A stretch of 64,000 nt of DNA from Chiloscyllium plagiosum (Eukaryota): assembly GCF_004010195.1 (NCBI RefSeq), contig NC_057729.1, positions 37,456,999-37,520,998 of the forward strand. Reading direction: 5' to 3'. Both the position numbers and the translations under genes were made by a program. The notes beneath the pieces were generated by a model. The model saw only the letters and a program-made list of their open reading frames with translations. It made no database searches and was not told where the DNA came from. Within the stretch, counting starts at the first letter, position 1; each line of letters opens with the position of its first letter. Below are positions 1 to 51,910 of the stretch, in pieces.

Positions 1-109
1 GGGTGCTGGCAGGTGGGACTAGATTGGGTTGGGATATCTGGTCAGCATGGACGGGTTGGACCGAAGGGTCTGTTTCCATGCTGTACATCTCTATGACTCT
101 ATGACTCTA
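1..109 (+). mobile_element. 3' end of CR1 (HER1-like) LINE
   Basis: Same 3' UTR as the CR1 at 41815-41917; ends in a (CTATGACT)n tail. Confidence 0.85.
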
Positions 110-189
110 AGAACTTCAACAAAAACTAAAGCATCTTATCAGCAGATCCAAATATTCCATACAGTCATCACAGGAATTTATGGACAGCA

Positions 190-480
190 TCAAGAACATA
201 AACACAGCATCCACGGACTCCATCAACAGGCACATTGACCTCAACCCAATATACTGGCCACTACAATGAACAACTGGAACCGGCAACTGGAAGCAGCCCA
301 AACAGAACCAAATAAATTCCAGAAGACACCATACAGCAGCACTTCACAGGAGGCTCCAATGAACTGATGGTTTCACCTAGACGGAGGACAAAATGTCTGC
401 AAATCAACTTCCCAACTCAGCAAACATACCCACAATCACGACAACCAACATCCAAGCTACAAATCTTTACATAAACCATG
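190..480 (+). mobile_element. Penelope-like element 3' remnant (Poseidon-type C-terminus, decayed hammerhead)
   Basis: Encodes STDSINRHIDLNPIY, which resembles the GIY-YIG C-terminus of PLEs. Followed by CTGATGG...CAAAATGTC (~364-397), a decayed hammerhead-like motif. Confidence 0.5.
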
Positions 481-626
481 AATAAGTGACCCAAAGATTC
501 GAGTGAAACAGGTGATCAACCTGCTCTGACCGAACCTCCTGTTTCTGACCTTGCTCACTATTTCACTGAGGTAAACACTCTTATTCCACTTTTCATGCAT
601 ACAGCCTTGACATTGTCTAGTCTTTG

Positions 627-933
627 TGGGCGGCACGGTGGCACAGTGCCTCGCAGTGCCAGAGACCCGGGTTCAATTCCCGCCTCAGGCGACTGACTGT
701 GTGGAGTTTGTACGTTCTCCCCGTGTCTGCGTGGGTTTCCTCCGGGTGCTCCGGTTTCCTCCCACACTCCAAAGATGTGCAGGTCAGGTGAATTGACCAT
801 GCTAAATTGCCCACAGTGTTAGGTAAGGGGTAAATGTAGGGGTATGGGTGGGTTGCGCTTCGGCGGGGCAGTGTGGACTTGTTGGGCCGAAGGGCCTGTT
901 TCCACACTGTAAATAATCTAATCTAATCTAATC
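627..933 (+). mobile_element. HE1-type tRNA-derived V-SINE
   Basis: tRNA-like head with B-box GGTTCAATTCC, V-domain (GTGTGGAGTTTG...CTCCGGTTTCCTCCCAC), CR1-like tail, (AATCT)n end. Confidence 0.88.
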
Positions 934-2712
934 TTTAGCAATTGAGAAGTTAACCAACAGCAAGTATCATAGGTGTGTCACATCAATTGACATTAGTTGA
1001 CTTTGCCTCATTCGAGCTGCTTGCTTTCTTTGGAAGGAGGGCTCTCTCTCAGTCTTAACAAACCTTGACCCCAGGCCAGCCTGCTCATGGTAGCTCATGT
1101 AAGCTATTTCTTGTAGGTTTTGTGTTGTCCAGTCAGCTGAATGACATTCACACACCCTTTGGTCAACTTATTTTGTTTTGCCAATAAATGCTAAACATCC
1201 AGTGACCTGCATCTGGTTTTGACAGGATTGCATCTAGACACACTGTGTCACCAGTTCAGTAGACTACCTCCTAACTATAGCAATTAATTTAAACATACAC
1301 ATCCCTTCAGAAAACAAGCCACCACCTGATCAACTGGCCTTGCAATAGGGCAACATTCATGTCTTTTCTTACTCATTTCAGCTGAGCCAGCCTACAGGAC
1401 TTTCACTGAAATGTGCTCATATGCTCATTACTCTTATTTTAGGATTTAACATGCCCCCTAAAATTCTGGAAGCTGGATTGAAAATAATCCAGACTAGTGG
1501 GGTGCAAGGTTTCCCAATGAGCACTGTATTTATAATGAATTTGGATGTTCTCAATCTAGTTGTTCATGTTGACAGGCTTACAACTCAGAAGGAAATGTCT
1601 GCCATTAACTGGGAATCTCACTCACAGAGACTGCACAACTGTTGTTGTGGGAAATGGAGACATGTCACACTGTCGATGTATGTTATAATATGGTTGACAA
1701 ATTTAAAGTCTGCAACTGTTGCACTATATCTGGCCTGTGACATACTGAGGCTATCACAAGGAGCTAGATTTTATTCCAATGCAACACTGAAAATACATGG
1801 CACTGTGGAAGAAAAATAATTAAGAAACCAAGCACTCTGGGTCATGTTACACTCAACCCTACCTAGGACCCTCCCCTCCCATTATCACAGGTGGTGTGGG
1901 GACGCTATCTGCTGCCCCGATACAGCGCTATCATTTGTAAACGATGACGAACAGCTGAGTTACTCCCCTTCACCTCATATTCCAGAGACAAATTGCTGAG
2001 TCCTAATATTTGCCTCCTCTTGTAAAATGCTGAACCTGATCTCGTGACCCGAGAATCAGTGAAACTGTTCAAAGTTCTCCAAAGCAAAAAGGAAAATCTA
2101 GCCTGAGGCATTTAAAATGCAAAGAATTCCAGTCACCAATACTACTGTCAACTTGATAATCATTAAAATCAAGAACAACTGCCAGGAACAATTTTAACCT
2201 TCAACTTTCTTAGAGAAATATCTGCTGGAGAACAATGGTAAATGGGTTGTTATAAATGGACTGCAACAATTTTGTGAGCTGCAGTTCACATATTCATGAT
2301 AATTCTAGTGAATCTTTATGTTCAGTGTGAGAAGATTGGTTAGCATACACTGTACCCTTTTTGCTTCTGTATGCTGATACAACAATGGATCAGTTAATTT
2401 TTTCAGCAATTGTCATGTCTACCAAAAGACTAATCAATTTTGGATAATCCTGTGGAAAATTATATTTTTTTCTCTGGGAGCATACGGTTTAAAACTTGAG
2501 TAAGTAATATCTTTATCAGGTAGTTTTAATAAATTATATGTACAAGTTGACAAAAGACAAATCATTTCTCAGGCGTGCAAAGAAGGTAATTATGAAGATA
2601 ATGCAGTCATTGATATAATCAAAAAATGAGGACAGCATTTTATGTAAATTTTTTCAAAACCATTTTCCACTTTTGCCATAAAACCTTTTTTCAGATCCAC
2701 AATGAATTGTTA

Positions 2713-3057
<345 letters not shown>

Positions 3058-3839
3058 TTAGGCAGGTACAAAGCATTATAATCTAGATTGTAAAGAAATG
3101 CAGTTAATTTTTCTCAAGGTGTGTTCTGCAGTTTAGATTGCGAATAATGTACTTGCAGTGATCAATGTATCACATTGTACCAGGCTGAACAGAGAGAGAA
3201 AAAAATAAATTGGAAGAGCAACCAACCTCTGGCCATACTGAAAGATACTGGCAATATTTGTTTACCTCCCTCACATTATGTACTTGATCTTTTGCACTTC
3301 ACCCATATCAAATATGCAACTTAAGAGTACAGTATATCATTCTCAGAAATCTACATTCTGCCATTTAAAAAGTAGCCAAGTTGTTTAATGTGCTATCTTC
3401 AATTGCTGCAACCTGAAAAGAACAATCTAATGGTGAGCAAAACTGTGAGTTTGCATGAGAGCTACACACACTTCAAGAATAGCACTGGTGACATTACAGA
3501 TGTAGCTCTCCACTTATTTAAATCTCTGAAATAGTATTCCCAAGTCATACATTTATAAGGAATAGTGAAAGCACACATTAAATAAATCAGGAGTAGCAGG
3601 AATCATTGTCAATTGCTTCACAAGACTCTGAAGTTTTCACAGGAAACATTTCTGTAATATTTTGCTGAGCAAGGTTATACAATAAGATAACTAACATGAA
3701 TAATGATATGGTAGTACAGAACAAAAACAATGCTAAAAGGAGACAAGAAATTAGAGCTTATGCAATTCAAAACAAAGTGGCAGATCTGATCCAAAATAAG
3801 CTGAGAGACAGAACCCAGACTCTGATGATTCTGAGACTG

Positions 3840-15470: not shown

Positions 15471-15884
15471 TTAGCATGATTGAACAGGTTGCAATTTGAG
15501 ATTATTTTGTGACCTACTCCTTACCTGTTGCAACTTTTTAAATAGCTGTTTTAGCACCATTCATGGGATTTGTGAAATGAATTTTTCCATCCTATGTAGA
15601 ATACATTTGTCTCAGTTAAATTATATTCATCATTGTACTGCACATATTCTTCCACTCCTGGAAACCCTGGCTGATATTAGGTGCAACATTATTGATGATG
15701 ATAGCCCTCATTGTTTTGCTCCAATGGTTATTTTTCACAAATGAACATTGGTAGAGACTGTTTATCTCATTATTCTATACTTATTTAGTTTTGCTTTATT
15801 TCAGATGGCATCTTTTAATTTACTTTCACTAAGAGCCCTTTCAATTTTTATCTCTCCCAGGTATTTTGATCTATTTGTTACTTT

Positions 15885-16600
15885 TTTTTATTAATTCATG
15901 GGATATGAATGATATTGGCAATACTAGAGTTGTTTGTCCATCCCTAATTGCCTTGAGAAGGTGAAAAAGAAACCTGGTTATTGAACTAACACAACCCAAG
16001 CAATAAAAATACAACAACTATTCCATTAGGTTAGTTTAAGAAGTTCCAAGATTTTGACTGAATATGATGAGTGAAGGGTGATATACAGGCAGGATGTTGC
16101 ATGACTTGAAGGGGAACTTATGGGTGATGGTACTTCCTGCTGCCTTTGTTTTTTTTTGGATAGTAGAAATAACAGATTTTGAAAGTATTATTAAAACATC
16201 TTGGCAAGTTGCTGCAGTGTACCTTATACAACATTGGCAGAGGGTGTAAATGTTTAAAATAATAGATGAACTGCCAATCAACCAGCCATTGAATTTCATG
16301 AATATTGTTGAAACTGCAGTAATCCGTGGAGATTATCCCATCACAATACTGACTTGTGTAACGTAGATGGCGGAAAAGCCAAGGGAAGTCAAGGTGAATC
16401 ACTCTTTGCAGAATACTTAGCTGCTGATAATATTTATGTGGCTGGTCCAGCTATGGTTGTGATGATCCACAAGATGTTGATGGCAGGATATCACCAAAGG
16501 TGATAGCATTCATTATTAACAGGAGGCAGTTAGACTCCCTCTTGTTAAAGACTGTCATTGTCTGGAACTTGAATAGCACAAATGTTACTTCTCATTCACT
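15885..16600 (-). mobile_element. 3' fragment of the second LINE family (same family as 18448-22402)
   Basis: Shares the tail (ATTCATGGGAT...CCATCCCTAATTGCCTTGAGAAG) and RT C-terminal sequence with 18448-19200. Confidence 0.7.
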
Positions 16601-17999
16601 AAGCAATGCATTGTTTCAGTAAGTGGTTCTATTAATATCATATATTTTCCACAGTTGTTTTGTTACACTTAGGTTGTCTCATTGGCAAATGTTTCACATT
16701 AAAAGTCTTCTTTTTAAATCTATTGCTGCTTTTGAAGAAAATATTTAAAGTTCCTGATTATTTTTCTCTTTCATGGTTTCCTACTTTATTACCTGGAAGC
16801 CAACATTTTGGACTGCTCTGCAGATGAGAATTGAACTTCTTTCTAAAAGTCACTTGATCATTCTTTTTGTTTCAGTGGCAGATTTGTGGGGAGAATTGTC
16901 CCATCATTATACACTAATTATGTCCTTATTACTACCACAGTTGAATTCCCATCCATCAATTCAGCAGCAACAATGGGTTAGAAATGATATATTTAATAAT
17001 AGTCAAAGAAATCTCCTAGCCTCTTGTAATACCTCAGGCAATATTTTAATTAGTTGCATTTGTGTGCCTAATGTTGATGATATTCTTAAAAGATTTTTAA
17101 AAAGAAAAATTACAACAAGCATGCTAAATTTTGCCATGCTCCACTCTGCTGAATTTTAATTGGTTTTCGGAGGGCCCTGCATTAATTCTGTCAAAATTGA
17201 CTACACATATGCTCACGTTCGTGACATAAGTATGTTGAAAGAAGCTAATGTGATTTAAATGGGTTAAACCCATGGTCTGAGAATAAAAAATGTAATTCTT
17301 TTGTCACAAAAACAGACATTTAAACATCTATAAAAAATCCTTCACCTGTTCTTTTTCATTATTAAAAACCATTTTCAGGATGGCAAGACAATAAAATACT
17401 GCTCATTCCCAGTAGCCCTGAGAGGATAGTGATGGTCTTCTCGTTTGAAGGATGTTTCCTTATTGAAATTCACATTCCATGTTAATGATTCTCCCTTTAA
17501 TACATGGCTTACAAATGTTCAGGATTTTGAATTTGCAGTGATCGAGAAATGGCAACATAGGTCCAAGTACAGGGGATGTGTGATGTAGGGACCTTATAGT
17601 TGATAGTGTTCTTCTAATCTTGCTGATCTTCTTGATTTTACAGAGTGTGAGATACGTAGTATATCCTATGGATAATATAAAGAAATATTTCTGCTGTGAT
17701 GCTTAGTTGTCACAAGAGAATTTTCAGATGGTCCTCAAATTCAGTGACACAGACAGTGACCCAACTGAAATATTCAACTTGCTCAACTGAGATCTTCAGG
17801 ACATTTGTTTTGTGTAAATCAGTGCTTTTACTACAACTTCCTCAACCTATCACAAACTAATATCATGACAAGTGAGGACTGACCCATTTACAACATTTCA
17901 GTGATGGAAAAAAAGTTTCTGATATTCTTTTGATCATCCTCATCATTAATTTTTTTTTTGTTCCCTGGTCACATTTGAGATGTCACAGAATCTGGCTTG

Positions 18000-18312
18000 T
18001 GGGCGGCACGGTGGCACAGTGGTTAGCACTGCTGCCTCACAGCGCCAGAGACCCGGGTTCAATTCCCGCCTCAGGCAACTGACTGTGCGGAGTTTGCACA
18101 TTCTCCCCGTGTCTGCGTGGGTTTGCTCCGGTTTCCTCCCACAGTCACAAAGATGTGCAGGTCAGGTGAATTGGCCATGCTAAATTGCCCGTAGTGTTAG
18201 GTAAGGGGTTAATGTAGGGGTATGGGTGGGTTGCGCTTCGGCGGGGCGGTGTGGACTTGTTGGGCCGAAGGGCCTGTTTCCACACTGTAATGTAATGTAA
18301 TCTAATCTAATC
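18000..18312 (+). mobile_element. HE1-type V-SINE, full length, young
   Basis: A-box TGGCACAGTGG, B-box GGTTCAATTCC, V-domain, (AATCT)n tail; nearly identical to 627-933 and 22438-22713. Confidence 0.92.
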
Positions 18313-19952
18313 TGAACTTGATGTTAAAGACTTTCAGGGGAAACTCCCTGCCAACTGGCACCTCTGCTGCACCTAGCAGTATCAATGGGAGATGACATAT
18401 TTTGGATACAGATGCAGGACATGTAGTCCCTCACTAATTTGAAGGACATTTTCACATTCACTCATGGGATTTGGCTGACCACTACTTATTTGCCATCCCT
18501 AGCTGCCCTTGAGAAAATGGTAGTGAGCTGTCTTTTTGAACTATTGCAGTCCATGTGTCGTAGGTTGACTCACAATGCCCTTAGGGAGGGAATTCCAGAT
18601 TTAGACCCAGTGATAGTGAAAGAACAGTGATATATTTCCTCAGGATGGTGAATGTCTTGGAGAGGAAGTTGCAGGTGTTCCCAAATATCTACTGCCCTTG
18701 TCATTCTCAACTGAAATAGTCATGGATTTGGAAGTTGCTCAGGATCTTTGGTGAATTTTTGCAGTGCATCTTGCAGATACTTCACACTGCTGCTACTGAG
18801 CATCGGTGATGAAGGGAATGGATGCTTGTGGATGTGGTGGCGATCAAGTGGGCTGCTTTGGTTTGGACGATATCAAGCTTCTCAAATGTTGTTGGAGCTG
18901 TTCCCATCCAAGCATGTGGAGAGTATTGCATCACACTCTCTTGCGGCTTGTTGACGGTGGACAGGCTTTAGGAAGTCACGTGGGGAGTTATTCCCTGCAA
19001 TATTCCTAGCTCCTGACCTGACCTTCTAGGCAATGTATTTAAATGGTAAGTTGAGTTGAGCTTCTGGTCAGTGGTAACCCCCAGGATGTTGATTAAGGGG
19101 GAATTCAGTAATGGCAACAGCATTAAATGTCAAGGAGCAGTGGTTAAATTGTCTCTTATTGAAGATGGTCATTGCATGGAATTTGTGTGGCATAAGTGTT
19201 ACTCCCAATCTGTCAGCCCAAACCTGAATATTATCCAGATCTGGTGAATTTGAACATGGTCTGTTCCAACATCTGAGTCATGAATGGTGCTGAACATTAT
19301 TCAATCTACAGCCAATATCCCCATTTCCAGTTTTATGATGGAGGCAAGATCGTTGATGAAACAGCAGATGATGGTTGGCCTTCGGACACAATCCTGAGGA
19401 ACTTCTGCTATAGATGTCCTAGAGCCAAGATGGCTGTCCTGCAACAAGCACAACCATCAACCACTGATGTGTTGGGCTGTTTCATCATTGAGGATGGGGT
19501 ATTTGTAGAGCCTCTTCCCCAACCAGTTTAATTGTCCACCACCATTCATGACTGGATGTAGCAGGACTGCAGAGCTTAAGATCTGATCCTTTGGTGTGGG
19601 ATTACCTATCTCTGTTGATCACTTACTGCTTATACTGTTCGGCACGTGTAGACCTGCTTTATAGCTTCACCAGGTTGATATCTCATGTTGGGTGCCGCTC
19701 CTGGCATGCCCTCTGTACTCTTCATTGAATCAGGGTTGAACCACTGCCTCGATGGTAATGTTAGAGTGGGAGATATGCCAGGCTATGAGGTTACAGATCA
19801 TGTTGGAGTACCATTCTGCTGTTGCTGGTAGCCCAGAGTGCTTTATGAATGCCCAGTCTTGAGTTACTACATCTGTTCAAATTCTGTTCCATTTAGCACA
19901 TTGATAGTGCCATACTACGTAACAGAGGGTATTCTCAATTACAAGGTGGGAC

Positions 19953-20763
19953 TTGGGTGTTTACTATAGGCCCCCCAATAGCAGCAGAGATGTGGAGAAA
20001 CAGATTGGGAAACAGATTTTGGAAAGGTGCTGGGCTGAGGAGTGGCAGACGGCGTTCAACCCTGCCAAGACAAATAAGAATGAGGAATACAGGGTTAATG
20101 GTAGGGTTCTTAGTGAGGTGGAGGAACAGAGGGATCTTGGGGTCTATGTTATAGATCTTTGAAAGTTGCCACTCAGGTGGATAGAGCTTGTAAGAAGGCC
20201 TATGGTGTATTAGCGTTCATTAGCAGAGGGATTGAATTCAAGAGTCGTGAAGTGATGTTGCAACTGCACAGGACTTTGGTAAGGCCACATTTGGAGTACT
20301 GTGTGCAGTTCTGGTCACCTCACTTTAGGAAAGATGTGGAAGCTTTGGAAAGGGTGCAGAGAAGATTTACCAGGATGTTGCCTGGAATGGAGAATAAGTC
20401 GTACGAGGATAGGTTGAGAGTGATAGGCCTTTTCTCATTGGAACGGCGAAGGACTTGATAGAGGTTTATAAGATGATAAGAGGAATAGATATAGTAGACA
20501 GTCAGAAACTTTTTCCCCGGGTACAACAGAGTGTTACAAGGGGACATAAATTTAAGGTGAAGGGTGGAAGGTATAGGGGAGATGTCAGGGGTGGGTTCTT
20601 TACCCAGAGAGTGGTGGGGGCATGGAATGTGCTGCCTGTGGGAGTGGTAGAGTCAGAATCTTTGGTGACCTTTAAGCGGCAATAGGATAGGTACATGGAT
20701 GGGTGCTTAAGCTAGGACAAATGTTCTGTGCTGTATTGTACTATGTTCTATGTTCTATGTTCT
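19953..20763 (+). mobile_element. CR1 LINE with a large internal deletion, nested
   Basis: APE fragment GVYYRPPN is fused to the post-RT segment WAEEWQ...LVRPHLEYCVQFWSP; (CTATGTT)n tail. Confidence 0.88.
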
Positions 20764-21252
20764 AAGTGCAGTAGTCACTCTGACTAATACTCTCATGGAC
20801 AGATGCATCTGCAGCGGGAAAATTGGTAAGGATTCCAGGGAAGCAGCTAGGTCCTTTAGAATCAGTGGCAGTGCTACAGAGCCACCCTTGGCATTAGACA
20901 TTGAAATCTCCCATCCTGAGTACATTCTGCTCCCTTGTCACCCATGGTTCAACATGGAAGAGAATTGATTCATCACAGAGTGAGGACAGTATTTGTTATT
21001 CAGCAGATTTCCTTGCCCATGATTAACCTGATGCCATGAGACTTCATGGGCTCCCAAGCTCATGTTGATGACTCCCAGGGCAGATCCTTCATGAGTGCAT
21101 ACCACTTTTCGGCCCCCTCTGCCGGATCTGTCCTATCAATTGGACAGGACATATCCAGGGATGGTATTAGTGGTGGCTAGGACATCGTCTGTAAGGCTTG
21201 ATTCAATGAGTATGAGTATGTCAGGCTGTTGCTTGACTAATCTGTGAGACAG

Positions 21253-21442
21253 TGAGAAAGTGAGGACTGCAGATGCTAGAGATCAGAGTTGAGTATGTGG
21301 TGCTGGAAAAAGCACAGCAGGTCAGGCAGCATCCAAGGAGCAGGAGAATCAGGAATGAGGTGATGAAGGCCTTATGCCTGAAACATTGATTCTCCTGCCC
21401 CTCGGATGCTGCCTGAACTGCTGTGTTTTTCTAGCACCACAC
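21253..21442. mobile_element. Fold-back PLE terminal-repeat insertion with decayed hammerhead core
   Basis: 14-bp TSD AATCTGTGAGACAG (21239-21252, 21443-21456); inverted arms; core TGATGAAGGCCTTATGCCTGAAACATT. Confidence 0.88.
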
Positions 21443-21873
21443 AATCTGTGAGACAGCTCTCCCAATTTTGGCACTAGCCCTTGACATTCATAAGGAGTAC
21501 TTCGCAAGTCAACAGGGCTGTTTTTGCTGTTGTCATTTCCAATGTTGACGCCAGGTGGTCCATCCAGTTTCATTTTATTTTATTGAGACTTAATAGCGAT
21601 TGGCACAACTGAGTTGCTTCCGAGGCCACTGCAGAGAACAGTTGAGGATATTGCTGGAGTTCCGGAGTCACATGCAAGCCAGACCTGGTGAAGATGGCAG
21701 ATCTCCTTCCCTGAACAACATTAGTGAGGCAGATGGGTTTTTCCTTCAATAATTGACAATGGTTTCCTAATCACCTAAAGATGCTTAATTCCAGATTTTT
21801 TAAAAAATTGAATCACAGCATCTTCTGTTGCTGGATTCAAACTCAGAACATCAGCTCAGATTCTAGATTAATA

Positions 21874-22380
21874 GAGTCATACAGTCAAACACTATGGAAA
21901 CAGACCCTTCTGCCCAACTCATCCATGCCGATCAGGTTTCCCAAACTGAACTAGTCACATTTGCCTACATTTGGCCCATATCCCTCGAAAGCTTTCCTAT
22001 CCATGTACGTGGACAAATGTCTCTTAAATGTTGTAATTATACCAGCCTCTACCACTTATTCCAGCTACTCTTTTCATATACGCATTACCCTCTGCATGAA
22101 AAAGTTGCCCCTCAGCTCCCTTTTAAATCTTTCCCCTTTCACCTTAAACTTATGTTCTCTAGCTTTGGACTCCCCTATCCTGGGTAAAAGAGCTTGGCTA
22201 TTCACTTTATCTATGCCCATGATATTATAAATTTCTATAAGGTCAACCCTCAACCGCCTATACTCCAGGGGAAAAAAGTCCTATCCTTTCCAGCATCTCC
22301 TTATAAATCAAACCCTCCTGTCCTGGTAACATCCTGGCAAAGCTTTTTTTCACCATTTCCCAAATAATAACATCCTTCTA
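21874..22380 (-). mobile_element. CR1 LINE 3' fragment
   Basis: Reverse complement of the CR1 3' end and tail (AGAGTCATACAGTC); inserted between the A and B boxes of the host element. Confidence 0.85.
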
Positions 22381-22437
22381 CACCACTTAGCCATCACCTG
22401 CCTGACAGGTTTGGGCCTTCACCTGAACCAGAGAATT

Positions 22438-22713
22438 GTGGGCGGCATGGTGGCACAGTTCCCGCCTCAGGCGACTGACTGTGTGGAGTTTGCACGTTCT
22501 CCCCGTGTCTGCGTGGGTTTCCTCCAGGTGCTCCGGTTTCCTCCCACAGTTCAAAGACGTGCAGGTTAGGTGAATTGGCCATGCTAAATTGCTCGCAGTG
22601 TTAGGTAAGGGGTAAATGTAGGGGTATGGGTGGGTTGCGCTTCGGCGGGGCGGTGTGGACTTGATGGGCCGAAGGGCCTGTTTCCACACTGTAAGTAATC
22701 TAATCTAATCTAA
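22438..22713 (+). mobile_element. HE1-type V-SINE with a deletion in the head
   Basis: V-domain and (AATCT)n tail nearly identical to the 18000 copy. Confidence 0.88.
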
Positions 22714-25377
22714 TTAGCTGGACCAAGGGAGATCCCAATGAGGGTCAATATAATCATATATCATATACACTTTAGTGTTTTGGTCAGTGACTGAAGTCCT
22801 GGTGAATCATTATAAGCCATCACAAATATCACAACTGATTGAAATAATGAATGATTTTCCAATTAGACACAATAAGTTGGACAAAGTAGAGCAAAAAGTA
22901 ATAAAGATAAAGATTGTTGCAGAGCCATTAGATGCCAGACTAGAAAGGTTAACAAAGAATGGCAAACTAAGAAAGAATAATCTGTACTTACTGATGTGTC
23001 TTTTACCTTGCCATTGAAATGTGACCTTTACCTTGAGACACCATCTTACAGCTACTTAAAGTAAAGAGATTGTACAAACAAAACTCATAACATGACATCC
23101 CCAAGGTAGATGATGGAGGAATTATATCAAAAATACATTTATTTTTCATTGTTTTGAAAGGTGTTTAAACTTAAGGTCTTCTTTAAGTCTATCTGTGTTG
23201 TTGGGTATACATAGTAAATTTTCCTGATGCTGGGATGTGTTTCATTTATAGCCCTTGATATTATCTGTCCTTCACTCAGGTGCCTCTGGAAGCCCTTGAC
23301 CAGCATTTTCTTCAGTGGATTTCACAGCCTCCAAGTTGATGAGCTGCCTATATCATCAATGTACAACCAAGGAGCAGGAGTAGGCAATTCAGTCTATCTT
23401 GCTGAATTGATTGTAATCTCAAATCTATATTACTGAATGTCCCCGATAGTCTTTCACTCCCTTGCATAATAGGATTCTACTTATCTCTACCTTAAAAATA
23501 TTCAAGGACCCTACTTCAATCATATTTTCAGGAATGAATTCCAAAGATTCACGACTCATTAAATGGAAAGATTTTAGCTATTCTCCGTCTTTAATGATCA
23601 AACCTTAATTTTAACAATGTAAATCGCACTTGCTTTTCTGTTCCACTGCTTCCCCTCCACCCAATACTGCAATCCACAAAACCATAGAGCCTTTTAATTC
23701 ATCTCTGAGTCATCCTGGAAAATGTGGCTGAGTGTCAGCAATTGTACCATCATGGAAATATGTTGAATGCAGCACACATACAATTCCAAGTAAATTATAT
23801 TAAATCAACACTCGGGAACCAAACATGCAGTTTACTATTTCACCTAATTTGATCTTGTTGGGAGGTGCTAATCAGAAACTTCATTGACCCAAAGTCATGT
23901 GTTGCATCTGGCATTTCAAACAGGAGTGCCTTATTTGTAGATTTAGAACCTATTTTCACTATTTCACCAAAATAATCCTCTTACACTAGTGAGGAATACA
24001 AAGAAATAAAGGAGTTCTTAGACACATCCACAAATATTGCCTTAATCAATATGTTCTAATATGCTTCATGTTGGACAAGTCAGAATACAGTACTGGGTCT
24101 AGTTCTGAATAATGAGAAGAGACATATAAATGACTAGAAGGTAAGAGAAATTTGGGAGGCTATAGTCGTGACTTAATCATGTTTACTGAGTTGAGATAAC
24201 AAGAAAGAGGAACCAAAGATAAATGAATTGATTTGGAATTAGTTGAATGCAGTGCACTGAAAGCTTGGAGGAACTGGTGGAGAAAATGGCTGTTCAAATA
24301 GTAAATCAACAGTGGGAAAGCCACTTAAAAAAGGAACAGATAATACACAGATGCAATAAATATTTACTATAAGTTCCTGAGAAAGAAAACAACAGGGTCT
24401 TCTTGAATGTGCACAGAGATTAAAACAAAAATTTGTTTTTGAAAGACTGTGAGAGATGAATAATATAGAAAGATATAATGAAACATTTGAAAGATCCAAA
24501 AGGATTAAACAGGCTGCTTGAAGAGATGAAGAGCAAGTATGAAACTTAGTTGTGCATTTAATTAACACGATTCGCTGGTACATTTGAAAAGTATATGATC
24601 ATCACAAACAAACATATATTTCAGAGACTTGCTAAATAAACAGGTTAAAATAAGCTATCATTACGAGATAAACTTAGATATCACTGCAATTAAAAAAATT
24701 AAATTTCATTCTAGTTGACAGGAGAGCCCCAATTTAGGAACCAAAAAAGTTACTAGTAGGTTTCAATTAGTTACCTATAATCCACAGGGAGATTTTATTT
24801 GAACCCAAATCATTCTTTTCCCATAAACCTAATGTTTTCAGCTGATGAATTCACAAAGCATTTTAATTTTGCCTTGCTGTGCACAGCGGTGATAGTGATG
24901 GGAAAACTATGCCATTTAACAGCATGCTGGATTAAGCAAATGTCTCTTGCTAAATCATTTTACATTAACAATTAATTCTGTGATACTAACCATCTCATCT
25001 ATATACATTCACTGAATTCTAATATAATCTTAGATCCACTCTGTCACATTGCCTTTAAAAAAAAATCACAAAAAAACAAGCTGTGCTGCAACAAAATTCT
25101 TTTCCCAATAATTCTTGCAGCTCTGCATATTAACTGAGGTTTAATGATTAGTTAACAAAGCTGTAAAATTCTGATAGTGTGAGGTCAATCAAAAAGGAAC
25201 TAGGTGAATTGACTTAAACAGAGAGCGATCATTATCCAGAATTTCAAAGATCGCGGGATTCAACTAGCATTTAACTGTAGGTAGAAGAGAAAGAGCAATT
25301 CATTGACTGTTGTTCAATGGTAAAGATTCTGAAGCTGGATGCCCTCATCACTGCTCAATTCCCTAAGCTTTGTTATA

Positions 25378-36607: not shown

Positions 36608-37610
36608 CACAGTTAGGATAATTGGGTTTTCCTGGTACTCACAGTTAGGATAATGGGGTTTCCTGTTACTCACAGTTAGGATAATGGGTTTTTGTTACTC
36701 ACAGTTAGGATAATGGGGTTTTCTGTTACTCACAGTTAGGATAATGGGGTTTACTGTTACTCACAGTTAGGATAATGGGGCTTCCTGTTACTCACAGTTA
36801 GGATAATGGGTTTTTTGTTACTCACAGTTATTATAATGGGACTTCCTGTTACTCGCAGTTAGGATAATGGGTTTTCTGTTACTCACAGATAGGATAATGG
36901 GTTTTTTGTTACAGTTAGGATAACGGGGCTTCCTGTTACTCACAGTTAGGATAATGGGGCTTCCTCTTACTAACAGTTAGGATAATGGGGTTTCCTGTTA
37001 TTCACAATTAGGATAATGGGTTTTTTGTTACTCACAGTGGGGATAATGGGGCTTCCTGTTCCTCACAGTTAGGATAATGGGTTTTCTGTTACTCACAGTT
37101 AGGATAATGGGTTTTTTGTTACTCACAATTAGGATAATGGGGCTTCCTGTTACTCATAGTTAGGATAATGGGTTTTCTGTTACTTAAAGTTAGGATAATG
37201 GGTTTTTTGTTACTCACAGTTAGGATAATGGGGTTTTCTGTTACTCACAGTTAGGATAATGGGTTTTTTGTTACTCACAGTTATTATAATGGGACTTCCT
37301 GTTACTCGCAGTTAGGATAATGGGTTTTCTGTTACTCACAGTTAGGATAATGGGGTTTTCTGTTACTCACAGTTAGGGATAATGGGTTTACTGTTACTCA
37401 CAGTTAGAATAATGGGGCTTCCTGTTACTCACAGTTAGGATAATGGGGTTTTCTGTTACTCACAGTTAGAATAATGGGGCTTCCTGTTACTCACAGTTAG
37501 GATAATGGGGTTTACTGTTACTCACAGTTAGAATAATGGGGCTTCCTGTTACTCACAGTTAGGATAATGGGGTTTACTGTTACTCACAGTTAGGATAATG
37601 GGGTTTTCTA
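36608..37610. repeat. Minisatellite, ~31-bp unit, ~32 copies
   Basis: Unit CACAGTTAGGATAATGGGGTTTCCTGTTACT, with variation confined mostly to the G/T tract. Confidence 0.97.
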
Positions 37611-39070
37611 TTATTTTAGTTAATGCCAGGATCAACATTGCATTTCCTTAAAAAAAAAGAGGTTTTAGGATTGAGAAAGAAGGTCAGCACTGATGAAGAA
37701 GCAAAGCAAATCAGAGTGGGTGATTTAGTATAAAATTATTAAATGAAAAATTAAAGAGAAGAAAGATTGCATTGAGACAAAAGAAAAAAGAAGGAATGAT
37801 AAAATAAAAGTATACATGGATGAGAAACATAATTTAAATTGTTTCCATCCAACAGTTAAGCCACTGGTTGACACTGAGCTAACAATTACCTTTCATCAAA
37901 AGGTACTTTCATTCAATGACCAGATTTAACTTTGTGCTGAGTTTAGTATAAAGTAAAGTGAAAACACAAGTTCATAAAGATAATTGGGAGGCTAGGGGTG
38001 AAGCATAAGGAAAACAGTAGATGAGAACAAACACAAATTATGTAGATTCACAACTGAGATGAATCTTTTCATCCTGAAAAGTTGACTGATCAATTCACAT
38101 ATAGGCTTGTGTACCAGTTGTTAATTACTGACATGACCGAGCCCATGACAACAAGTGTGCAATATATATTTTTAACTGACTCTAAACATCATTGAAAGTT
38201 TCTTGTTGTCCTGCATACTACATTCACAACACATATAATTGCCATTTAATATCCAAAAGCCAACATGATAAACCTGGGGTTAGTGTAGCAAAATTGATTA
38301 TTTGTATCTATCCCTAAGCAGAACTGGTAATTTGAAACACAGTATGTACCAAAGAACTCTATGATCCTGGTTATTTCTTTTTAGGCTTCAATTTACCTTT
38401 AGTAATTGAGGAGAAATACGTTTGTATTATAAAAAGTTAACCAAAGTAAAAATGGTAAAACTTGCTTCCAAAATAATGTATTGGCATTTATAGAGAGTTT
38501 TATAAAATTAGAGAAATTACGACTGTCAGAAATACACTATGTCTAAGAATTGCAATACAGAGCACGATAATAGGATCACTATGTATTTGCAGAATGATCA
38601 ACAGAGAACATTTCCGACGTTGCAGCACTCCTTCAACAGCACGCTTAAGTATCAACTCACGGTCATATCACTAATATGTGGCATTGAGAATGCTACTATT
38701 TCTGGTTATAACGTTCTTGTGAAACCTTGGTCTATCTCCAAATACACAAACTGTCTGGTATTCCCTAAGTATCACAGTCAGTCAGGGAAATGATAACATT
38801 ACACTACCGTAGGAAATCATGTCAGATGATTAAATCATGTTAAAGCAAGAACAATGAGTTTCACTGGCAAATTAAAAAAAAGTTAAAGGCTAAGAAAACG
38901 GACTTACATTCATATAGCACCTGAGCACAATTCAGAGAGGTCTTAAAACACCTTTCACACGAGCAATTACATCATGTGTTTTTTTATTATTAGTGCATGA
39001 GCAAATGGCAGAGTTACTTCACTCAGAACTGGGTTCCACAAATAGCAAAATTAAAACTAAGGCTGTGTTA

Positions 39071-50526: not shown

Positions 50527-51910
50527 GTCATAGAGTCAAGAAAGCAGACCTTTTGGTCCAACCAGACCATTTTGACCATAATCCCAAATGAAACTACTCC
50601 CACCTGCTGTGTTTGGCTCATATCCCTCCAAACATTTCCTATTCATGTACTTATCCAAATGTCTTTTAAATATTGTAACTGTAGCTGCATCCACCAATTC
50701 CTCTGGAAGTTCATTCCACATATGAACCACTCTGTAAAGAAAAATTGCCTTACGGCTTTGTAAAATCTTTCTCCTCTCATTTTAGGAATACACCTCCTAG
50801 ACTTGAAATTCTCCACCCTGGGGAAAAGACACCTGTCTTTTCACTTATCTGTACCCCTTATGATTTTATAAACCTCCATAAGGTTATCTCTCAACTTCCT
50901 ATGCTTCAGTGAGAGATATCTCAGCCGGAAGTTCATTCCACACATGAACCACTCTGTAAAGAAAAATTGCCTCACGGCTTTGTAAAATCTTTCTCCTCTC
51001 ATCTTAGGAATACACCTCCTAGACTTGAAATTCCCCACCCTAGGGAAAAGACACCTGTCTTTTCACTTATCTGTACCCCTTATGATTTTATAAACCTCCA
51101 TAAGGTTATCTCTCAACTTCCTATGCTTCAGTGAGAGATATCTCAGCCTATCCAGTCTTTTCTTATAACTCAAACCCTCCATTCCCAGCAACATCCTGGT
51201 AAATGTCTTCTGAACCCTTTCCAGCTTAATAATATCCTTCCTATAACAGGGCGAACAGAACTGGACATCTCAGAAGAGGCCTCACCAATGATCTGTAGAA
51301 CCTCAACATGACAGCCCAACTCCTCAAAGGTCTGAGCAACGAAGGCAAGCATGTTAAACACCTTCTTAACCATCTTATCTGTATGTGGTGCAAACTTCAA
51401 AGAATTATGTACTTGAAGTCTTGGGTGTCTCTGTTCTACAACACTGCCCAAGGTCCTACTTTTAATTAGATAAGTTTTATCTTTGTTTGCCTCACGTTTA
51501 TCCAAATTAAACTCCAATCAACATCTTCAGCCCATTGACCTAATTGATTAAGATTCCACACATGAACCACTCAGTCACTGTCTTCACTGTCCAGTGTAAC
51601 CACCAATCTTGGTAGCATCTGCAAATTTACTAACTATACTTTCTATATTCTCATATAAATCATTTATATGTATGACAAATAAAAGTGGATCCAGCACCAA
51701 TCCCTGTAGAACACTGCTGGTAACAGGTCTCAACTCTGTAAAACAATCCTCCACCATCACTCTCTGTCTCCTACCATTCAGCCAATTGTGTATTCAATTA
51801 GCAAGCTCACCCTGAATCCCATGTGATCTAACGTTACTAATTAGTCTACCATATGGAAGCTTGTCAAAGGCTTTACTGAATTACAAGTAAACAATGTCTA
51901 CCGCTTTGTC
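50527..51910 (-). mobile_element. CR1 LINE fragment containing a 222-bp tandem duplication
   Basis: CR1 RT/C-terminal motifs; units 50705-50926 and 50927-51148. Confidence 0.88.

Follow-up and report, generated by a model that had tools for sequence, protein, structure and literature searches.

A tRNA-like head on the elasmobranch CR1-Zenon LINE and its possible transcription by RNA polymerase III

We analyzed a stretch of 64,000 nucleotides from the shark Chiloscyllium plagiosum (assembly GCF_004010195.1, contig NC_057729.1, positions 37,456,999 to 37,520,998), hereafter called the window, in which an earlier sequence-only reading had described a long interspersed element (LINE) opening with a tRNA-like sequence. 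A profile built from other copies of the element placed the window copy on the minus strand as five pieces (22382-22399, 21443-21875, 20765-21252, 19462-19955 and 18444-19458 in window coordinates). What remains at this locus is a dead copy of the elasmobranch CR1-Zenon LINE, interrupted three times. Its parts, from 5' to 3' along the element, are listed below.

22382-22399, minus strand: 5' end with RNA polymerase III (Pol III) A box (22383-22393); 15 of 18 positions identical to family positions 3-20.
21875-22381, minus strand: nested CR1 3' fragment splitting the head, with about 12 nt of head lost and no target site duplication (TSD); tblastn with a shark CR1 control protein matches 21981-22377.
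21820-21874, minus strand: remainder of the tRNA-Ser-like head, with an anticodon-arm-like stretch, a shortened variable arm and the B box (21833-21843), from comparison of the family head with a natural tRNA-Ser gene.
21607-21737, minus strand: highly conserved core of the 5' untranslated region (UTR), earlier taken for a Deu segment and common to short forms resembling short interspersed elements (SINEs); the LINE and the oldest short family agree at 114 of 116 positions.
21474-21573, minus strand: short frame opened by an upstream AUG, 35-37 codons long in the family, which overlaps the start of the APE endonuclease in a different frame; the AUG is present in the published consensuses of all five species.
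21443-21503, minus strand: beginning of the APE endonuclease, its first strand through to ELSHRL.
21253-21442, minus strand: nested inverted-repeat fragment of 190 bp with a 14-bp TSD (copies at 21443-21456 and 21239-21252; repeat families D7 and D13), presumably Penelope-like.
20765-21252, minus strand: APE endonuclease body, frameshifted, with a deletion of about 100 nt; a sister copy free of stops matches Pfam PF14529 and PF03372.
19955-20764, plus strand: second nested CR1 3' fragment, with an (ATGTTCT)n tail at 20721-20764.
19462-19954, minus strand: linker of the second open reading frame (ORF2) between APE and reverse transcriptase (RT), family positions 1064-1574, 80% identity.
18499-19458, minus strand: C-terminal half of the RT, then the C-terminal region as far as the stop codon (18499-18501); a sister copy matches Pfam RVT_1.
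18449-18498, minus strand: remnant of the 3' UTR stem-loop and a short A tail, common to the short forms; the element ends at about 18449.

An internal deletion at 19458-19462 removed about 675 nt of the RT (family positions 1575-2250), and no TSD was found for the window copy as a whole. The two promoter boxes thus lie where the sequence-only reading had put them, and the order of APE, RT remnants and 3' tail that it described was confirmed, apart from the insertion that splits the APE and the missing part of the RT. The A-box columns are conserved at 65-100% among 23 copies. Two further, older 3' fragments of the same Zenon family lie on the minus strand at 15880-16594 and 17397-17630.

The column majority of 47 copies, from which individual copies diverge by a median of 7.9%, is 3.29 kb long and consists of the head, the conserved 5' UTR core, a single APE-RT frame of 950 codons, a short 3' UTR and an A tail. 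About 430 nt separate the 5' end from the APE, and the 35-37-codon upstream frame is the only frame found there. The element thus has no canonical ORF1, as had been proposed, although this small frame overlaps the APE start. The earlier suggestion that copies would yield a consensus with an intact ORF2 was borne out by the majority sequence but by none of the 150 genomic matches listed; in the stingray, 3 of 612 copies are reported as intact. Protein libraries returned only fragments at 66-73% identity, shark-named where looked up.

A 421-bp query spanning head to APE was positive in 40 of 40 scored matches among 5058 first-look candidates, and 24 of 29 other loci match at least 200-300 further bases into the APE. 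Furthermore, the 5'-most 60 positions were reached by 14 of 28 copies chosen through the middle of ORF2 and by 12 of 19 chosen mostly through the APE protein, most of these head-reaching copies starting at positions 2-10. Because the head is present even in copies selected through other parts of the element, it belongs to the LINE family. The tRNA-headed, ORF1-less LINE is therefore a real family with a multicopy junction, found in five species, and not a junction unique to this locus. No convincing TSD was seen in 18 full-length copies.

The family and its sequence are already known: they are the elasmobranch Zenon of PMC13343379, which describes ORF1-less, poly-A-tailed Zenon LINEs in five elasmobranchs. 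Compared by eye, the first 400 nt of the seven elasmobranch Zenon consensuses in its supplement (CarCar, RhiTyp, ScyCan, HypSab and SquAca) are approximately identical to the window family, and the tRNA-like head opens all seven. Over the same first 400 nt, the coelacanth and two hagfish Zenons start differently and show no tRNA-like head. The published elements share with ours a length of about 3.3 kb, the absence of ORF1 and the A tail; in contrast, the head, the loss of T runs, the missing AUG and the short derivatives go unremarked in the accessible parts of that report. Its accessible text and supplement carry no mention of tRNA, and the main text, as far as accessible, none of promoter, polymerase, Pol III or frameshift. 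Likewise, the open literature searched, which does not extend to Repbase and Dfam, where the short families may be listed, contained no Zenon described as tRNA-headed or as transcribed by Pol III and no report of the T-run loss, missing AUG or short derivatives.

In keeping with CR1-Zenon, APE and RT share one ORF, no canonical ORF1 exists, and the tail is poly-A rather than a microsatellite, as seen in the tails of 18 full-length copies. The RT phylogeny that had been called for, a quick tree of 119 rows, placed the element in a 31-row clade (SH-aLRT 98) with Branchiostoma (amphioxus) and moth proteins, shark CR1 falling outside. Because no labelled Zenon protein was among these rows, the name rests on DNA likeness to the published consensuses.

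The family head resembles a natural tRNA-Ser gene with a z score of about 5, Ser being the only isotype compared, and in its older form the anticodon arm matches at 13 of 14 positions. Copies begin at a precise 5' end; the A box follows after about 11 nt (near +10) and the B box further downstream, which is the layout of a type 2 Pol III promoter. Runs of four or more T, and degenerate T5 elements, terminate transcription by human Pol III, according to the accessible part of PMC3141230. We observed that the sense strand of the 47-copy majority contains no TTTT in 3.29 kb, compared with 15 AAAA, 11 CCCC and 8 GGGG. Within the ORF, TTT occurs 4 times where 13-23 are expected under two codon-preserving nulls, and 0 of 3000 shuffles were as low. 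Four degenerate terminator-like patterns are absent from the sense strand and occur 14 times on the antisense strand; TTVTT occurs once on the sense strand and 17 times on the antisense strand.

Control LINEs gave different values. The ORF2 of shark CR1 holds 15 TTTT in 2.57 kb, and natural copies carry 0.55 TTTT per kb in Zenon versus 6.0 in CR1, an eleven-fold difference. The observed-to-expected ratio of TTT is 0.21 in Zenon versus 0.68-1.47 in 73 CR1-group control frames, of which one is free of TTTT. The control frames were taken from LINE contigs of eukaryotic type that lie within prokaryote genome records; 73 of 79 loci were kept, those with a frame matching the element that runs for at least 400 aa without a stop. 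A search for head-less Zenon DNA to serve as a control gave nothing in viral contigs and five weak loci in metagenomes. The T-run depletion points to Pol III transcription of the whole element, and full-length Zenon was probably transcribed end to end by this polymerase. Since the lack of TTTT is by itself only marginal (P 0.064 by codon shuffle, P 0.077 by first-order Markov), the strength of the case comes from TTT and from the controls.

The search for controls gave side observations of its own. Many prokaryote genome records (L223-L301) hold intact eukaryote-type LINE contigs, likely as host contamination. The closest Zenon relative with DNA, L236 (positions 1-3099, 35%), has an in-frame AUG, a C-rich 5' end, a poly-A tail and few T4 runs. 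Another LINE, L279 (3380-5400), carries one TTTT where 10 are expected, and further T-run-poor LINEs may exist.

The first in-frame Met of ORF2 is codon 266, past the APE, while several close relatives have a predicted Met 7-19 residues ahead of the first APE strand. An upstream AUG at about +349 is kept in the accessible published consensuses of all five species. It lies 83 nt (12 of 21 copies) or 77 nt (5 of 8 copies) from the APE anchor in two subfamilies, and is out of frame by the same amount in both; by eye, the distance is 77 nt in the ray consensus too. Among the changes seen by eye across species, 10 of 14 fall at third positions of the AUG frame. At the few sites available, substitutions just after the AUG are mostly synonymous in the AUG frame and those nearer the APE in the APE frame. 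The simplest reading is a predicted -1 frameshift from the upstream AUG into the APE frame, to which we give about even credence; AUG-independent reinitiation is the alternative.

Two short families consist of the head joined to the tail, with fixed breakpoints at 318 and 293, and their 5' and 3' ends are colinear with the partner LINE, as in a SIDE. Fifty exact matches join position 318 to the final codons of ORF2. By eye, 29 loci picked with one 318-joint copy comprise 10 with that joint, 18 with the joint at 293 and one with another deletion. Another set of 29 loci, picked by the head, comprises 21 that run into the APE, seven one-off deletions and one interrupted by another SINE. Core identity rises from 0.85 in the oldest short family to 0.92 in the younger one and 0.94 in the LINE, and at 24 of 35 diagnostic sites the younger family agrees with the LINE. 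The head of the oldest short family matches that of the LINE at 142 of 176 positions. We conclude that both short families are likely deletion derivatives of the LINE.

The opposite direction of descent would have an older independent SINE, made of head and core, captured by the LINE, the oldest short family being this captured SINE rather than a derivative. The greater divergence of that family, the abundance of its junction in reads, and the fact that the head must derive from a tRNA or a SINE at some point speak for such a capture. However, capture would require the LINE to have joined the SINE exactly where the SINE's body meets its tail, there is a second fixed breakpoint besides many one-off deletions, and the younger short family follows the LINE. 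Zenon is also known to spawn deletion derivatives repeatedly: in Lepidoptera, a single-ORF CR1-Zenon has given rise to 5'-plus-3' derivatives such as the SIDE Persaeus, which, as described in the accessible part of PMC6740152, differs from the shark short forms in having neither tRNA homology nor a Pol III promoter. Repeated deletion from the LINE of the day would fit these data better than a single capture, which we regard as unlikely while giving it real weight. Capture would in any case be compatible with Pol III transcription.

As a rule, LINEs are transcribed by Pol II and have to be translated. A second alternative is that Pol II transcribes this LINE too, from a promoter in the conserved core or by host read-through, the head being a passenger that would act as promoter only in the short forms and the scarcity of T runs having another cause. 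The conserved upstream AUG suits scanning, and several observations weigh against Pol III. The closest control relative, L236, is already T-poor (one TTTT where 3.7 are expected; TTT ratio 0.81), and low Phe content is common to the close relatives. TTTT is common in genomic copies in an A-tract at about +113 (4 of 17 copies picked without the window query and 4 of 10 picked with it), and a master element carrying it would stop Pol III early. We read this TTTT as a probable post-insertion change because the T counts are graded, both subfamilies are affected, and the accessible published consensuses lack it. In addition, ARAGORN called no tRNA in 20 loci and Rfam returned nothing at the head in five; no intact ORF exists among the 150 genomic matches listed, all copies seen being dead; neither a canonical slippery heptamer nor a strong stimulatory fold was found; and the short families predate the sampled LINE copies, which also fits capture. 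RNA reads cover 30 of 30 bins of the element in one raw RNA run and none in a second, which is uninformative on the polymerase; no transcript start sites were found in them.

Against Pol II transcription, a comparable loss of TTT occurs in 0 of 73 control frames and is not seen in shark CR1. The depletion is also strand-specific and spans coding sequence absent from the short forms, and copies start at a sharply defined 5' end close to the A box. We therefore consider Pol II transcription of the full-length element unlikely.

As observations on the A-tracts themselves, TTTTAAAA outnumbers AAAATTTT by 142 to 24 in the genomic loci and the window, loci that are enriched for the Zenon element, and A-tracts seem to become T-then-A runs after insertion.

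Under a third possibility, the tRNA-like head would work in the RNA, whichever polymerase makes the transcript, either by defining the 5' end as a processing site or by serving translation. The predicted fold of the head is more stable than that of shuffled sequences (z -2.6), almost no variation exists in the core, and ORF2 has no AUG of its own. However, the predicted fold is not a cloverleaf, the folding energy of the core is ordinary (z -0.45), and the loss of T runs over 3.3 kb would be left unexplained. We find this improbable.

That the middle segment is a Deu domain and this LINE the source of shark DeuSINEs, or that a chance SINE lies beside a truncated LINE, is very improbable despite the tRNA-like head and a tail shared with a SINE-like element, because no Deu similarity was found, the SacSINE1 tail is L2-type (PMC5499810, accessible part), and the junction is multicopy in five species. 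By eye, the segment is unrelated to the published Deu alignment (PMC7245038 Fig. S4, the part available), and the published alignments of the UCON3 and Meta central domains showed no match to it either. A full-length natural DeuSINE resembling SacSINE1, present in the same genome at L031 1370-1840, is unrelated to the Zenon element: it aligned to 30 heads at shuffle level (z -2.3 to +2.1) and matched a profile of the 5' region with a best E-value of 2.7. The profile search was added because the first alignment test used lax gaps; the Deu references were this one natural copy, whose tail appears L2-type, and the published core, about 140 nt of the full 330-bp consensus. DeuSINEs (SacSINE1, AmnSINE1, LmeSINE1 and SINE3) share with Zenon a tRNA-type head with A and B boxes, but their body differs from the Zenon 5' UTR core. 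Going by its published description, SacSINE1 was also rejected as the identity of the short families. The tail that the sequence-only reading had compared with that of shark DeuSINEs is the end of the LINE's own ORF2 plus its 3' UTR. Its proposal that SINEs arise from the LINE by internal deletion likely holds for the related short elements but not for DeuSINEs, and the link that it drew to SacSINE1, AmnSINE1 and SINE3, with its bearing on the origin of the Deu domain, found no support.

Elsewhere in the window, three near-identical young SINE copies, which we take to be HE1-like V-SINEs, lie at 674-932, 18052-18310 and 22456-22714, the last two flanking the Zenon element. A minisatellite of about 33 copies of a 31-bp unit occupies 36608-37613, and a 222-bp tandem duplication, 97-98% identical, lies within a CR1 fragment at 50705-51148.

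Returning to transcription by Pol III, a Zenon ancestor may have gained its head by template switching onto a tRNA or the RNA of a tRNA-headed SINE before sharks and rays split. Selection would then have removed Pol III terminators along the whole element. More speculatively, ribosomes might have started on the uncapped RNA at the out-of-frame AUG near +349 and entered the APE frame by a -1 frameshift or by AUG-independent reinitiation, perhaps aided by the conserved core. With an internal promoter and a tail that carries the RT signal, the element would become a ready-made SINE through any internal deletion, and this likely happened repeatedly. The complete proposal, of an autonomous coding LINE kept on Pol III through shark and ray history, purged of terminators over 3.3 kb, expressing its APE-RT from uncapped RNA by way of an out-of-frame AUG and a -1 frameshift, and repeatedly giving birth to SINEs by internal deletion, is tentative, and we would place it somewhat short of even.

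A related case is that of SINEs with bipartite RTE or Vingi parts (PMC5786205), in which, as far as the accessible part of that report goes, a LINE 5' UTR likewise serves as SINE body and the head was added to a non-coding derivative, whereas in shark CR1-Zenon the coding LINE itself has the head. RTE-1_DAn is another LINE said there to hold tRNA-like sequence. Shark CR1-Zenon, with both forms in one genome, offers a direct case for the hypothesis set out in the accessible part of PMC5786205 that LINE 5' UTRs are the origin of conserved SINE bodies.

The Zenon finding carries no information on the Deu domain. Penelope-like elements, whose RT is of an unrelated class, are reportedly transcribed by Pol III and would then set a precedent for a coding retroelement that uses this polymerase. 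In the textbook division, LINEs are coding elements transcribed by Pol II and SINEs are non-coding elements transcribed by Pol III. If our reading is true, a LINE with a Pol III promoter would blur this division of polymerases between LINEs and SINEs, and would raise the testable question of how an uncapped 3.3-kb RNA is translated.

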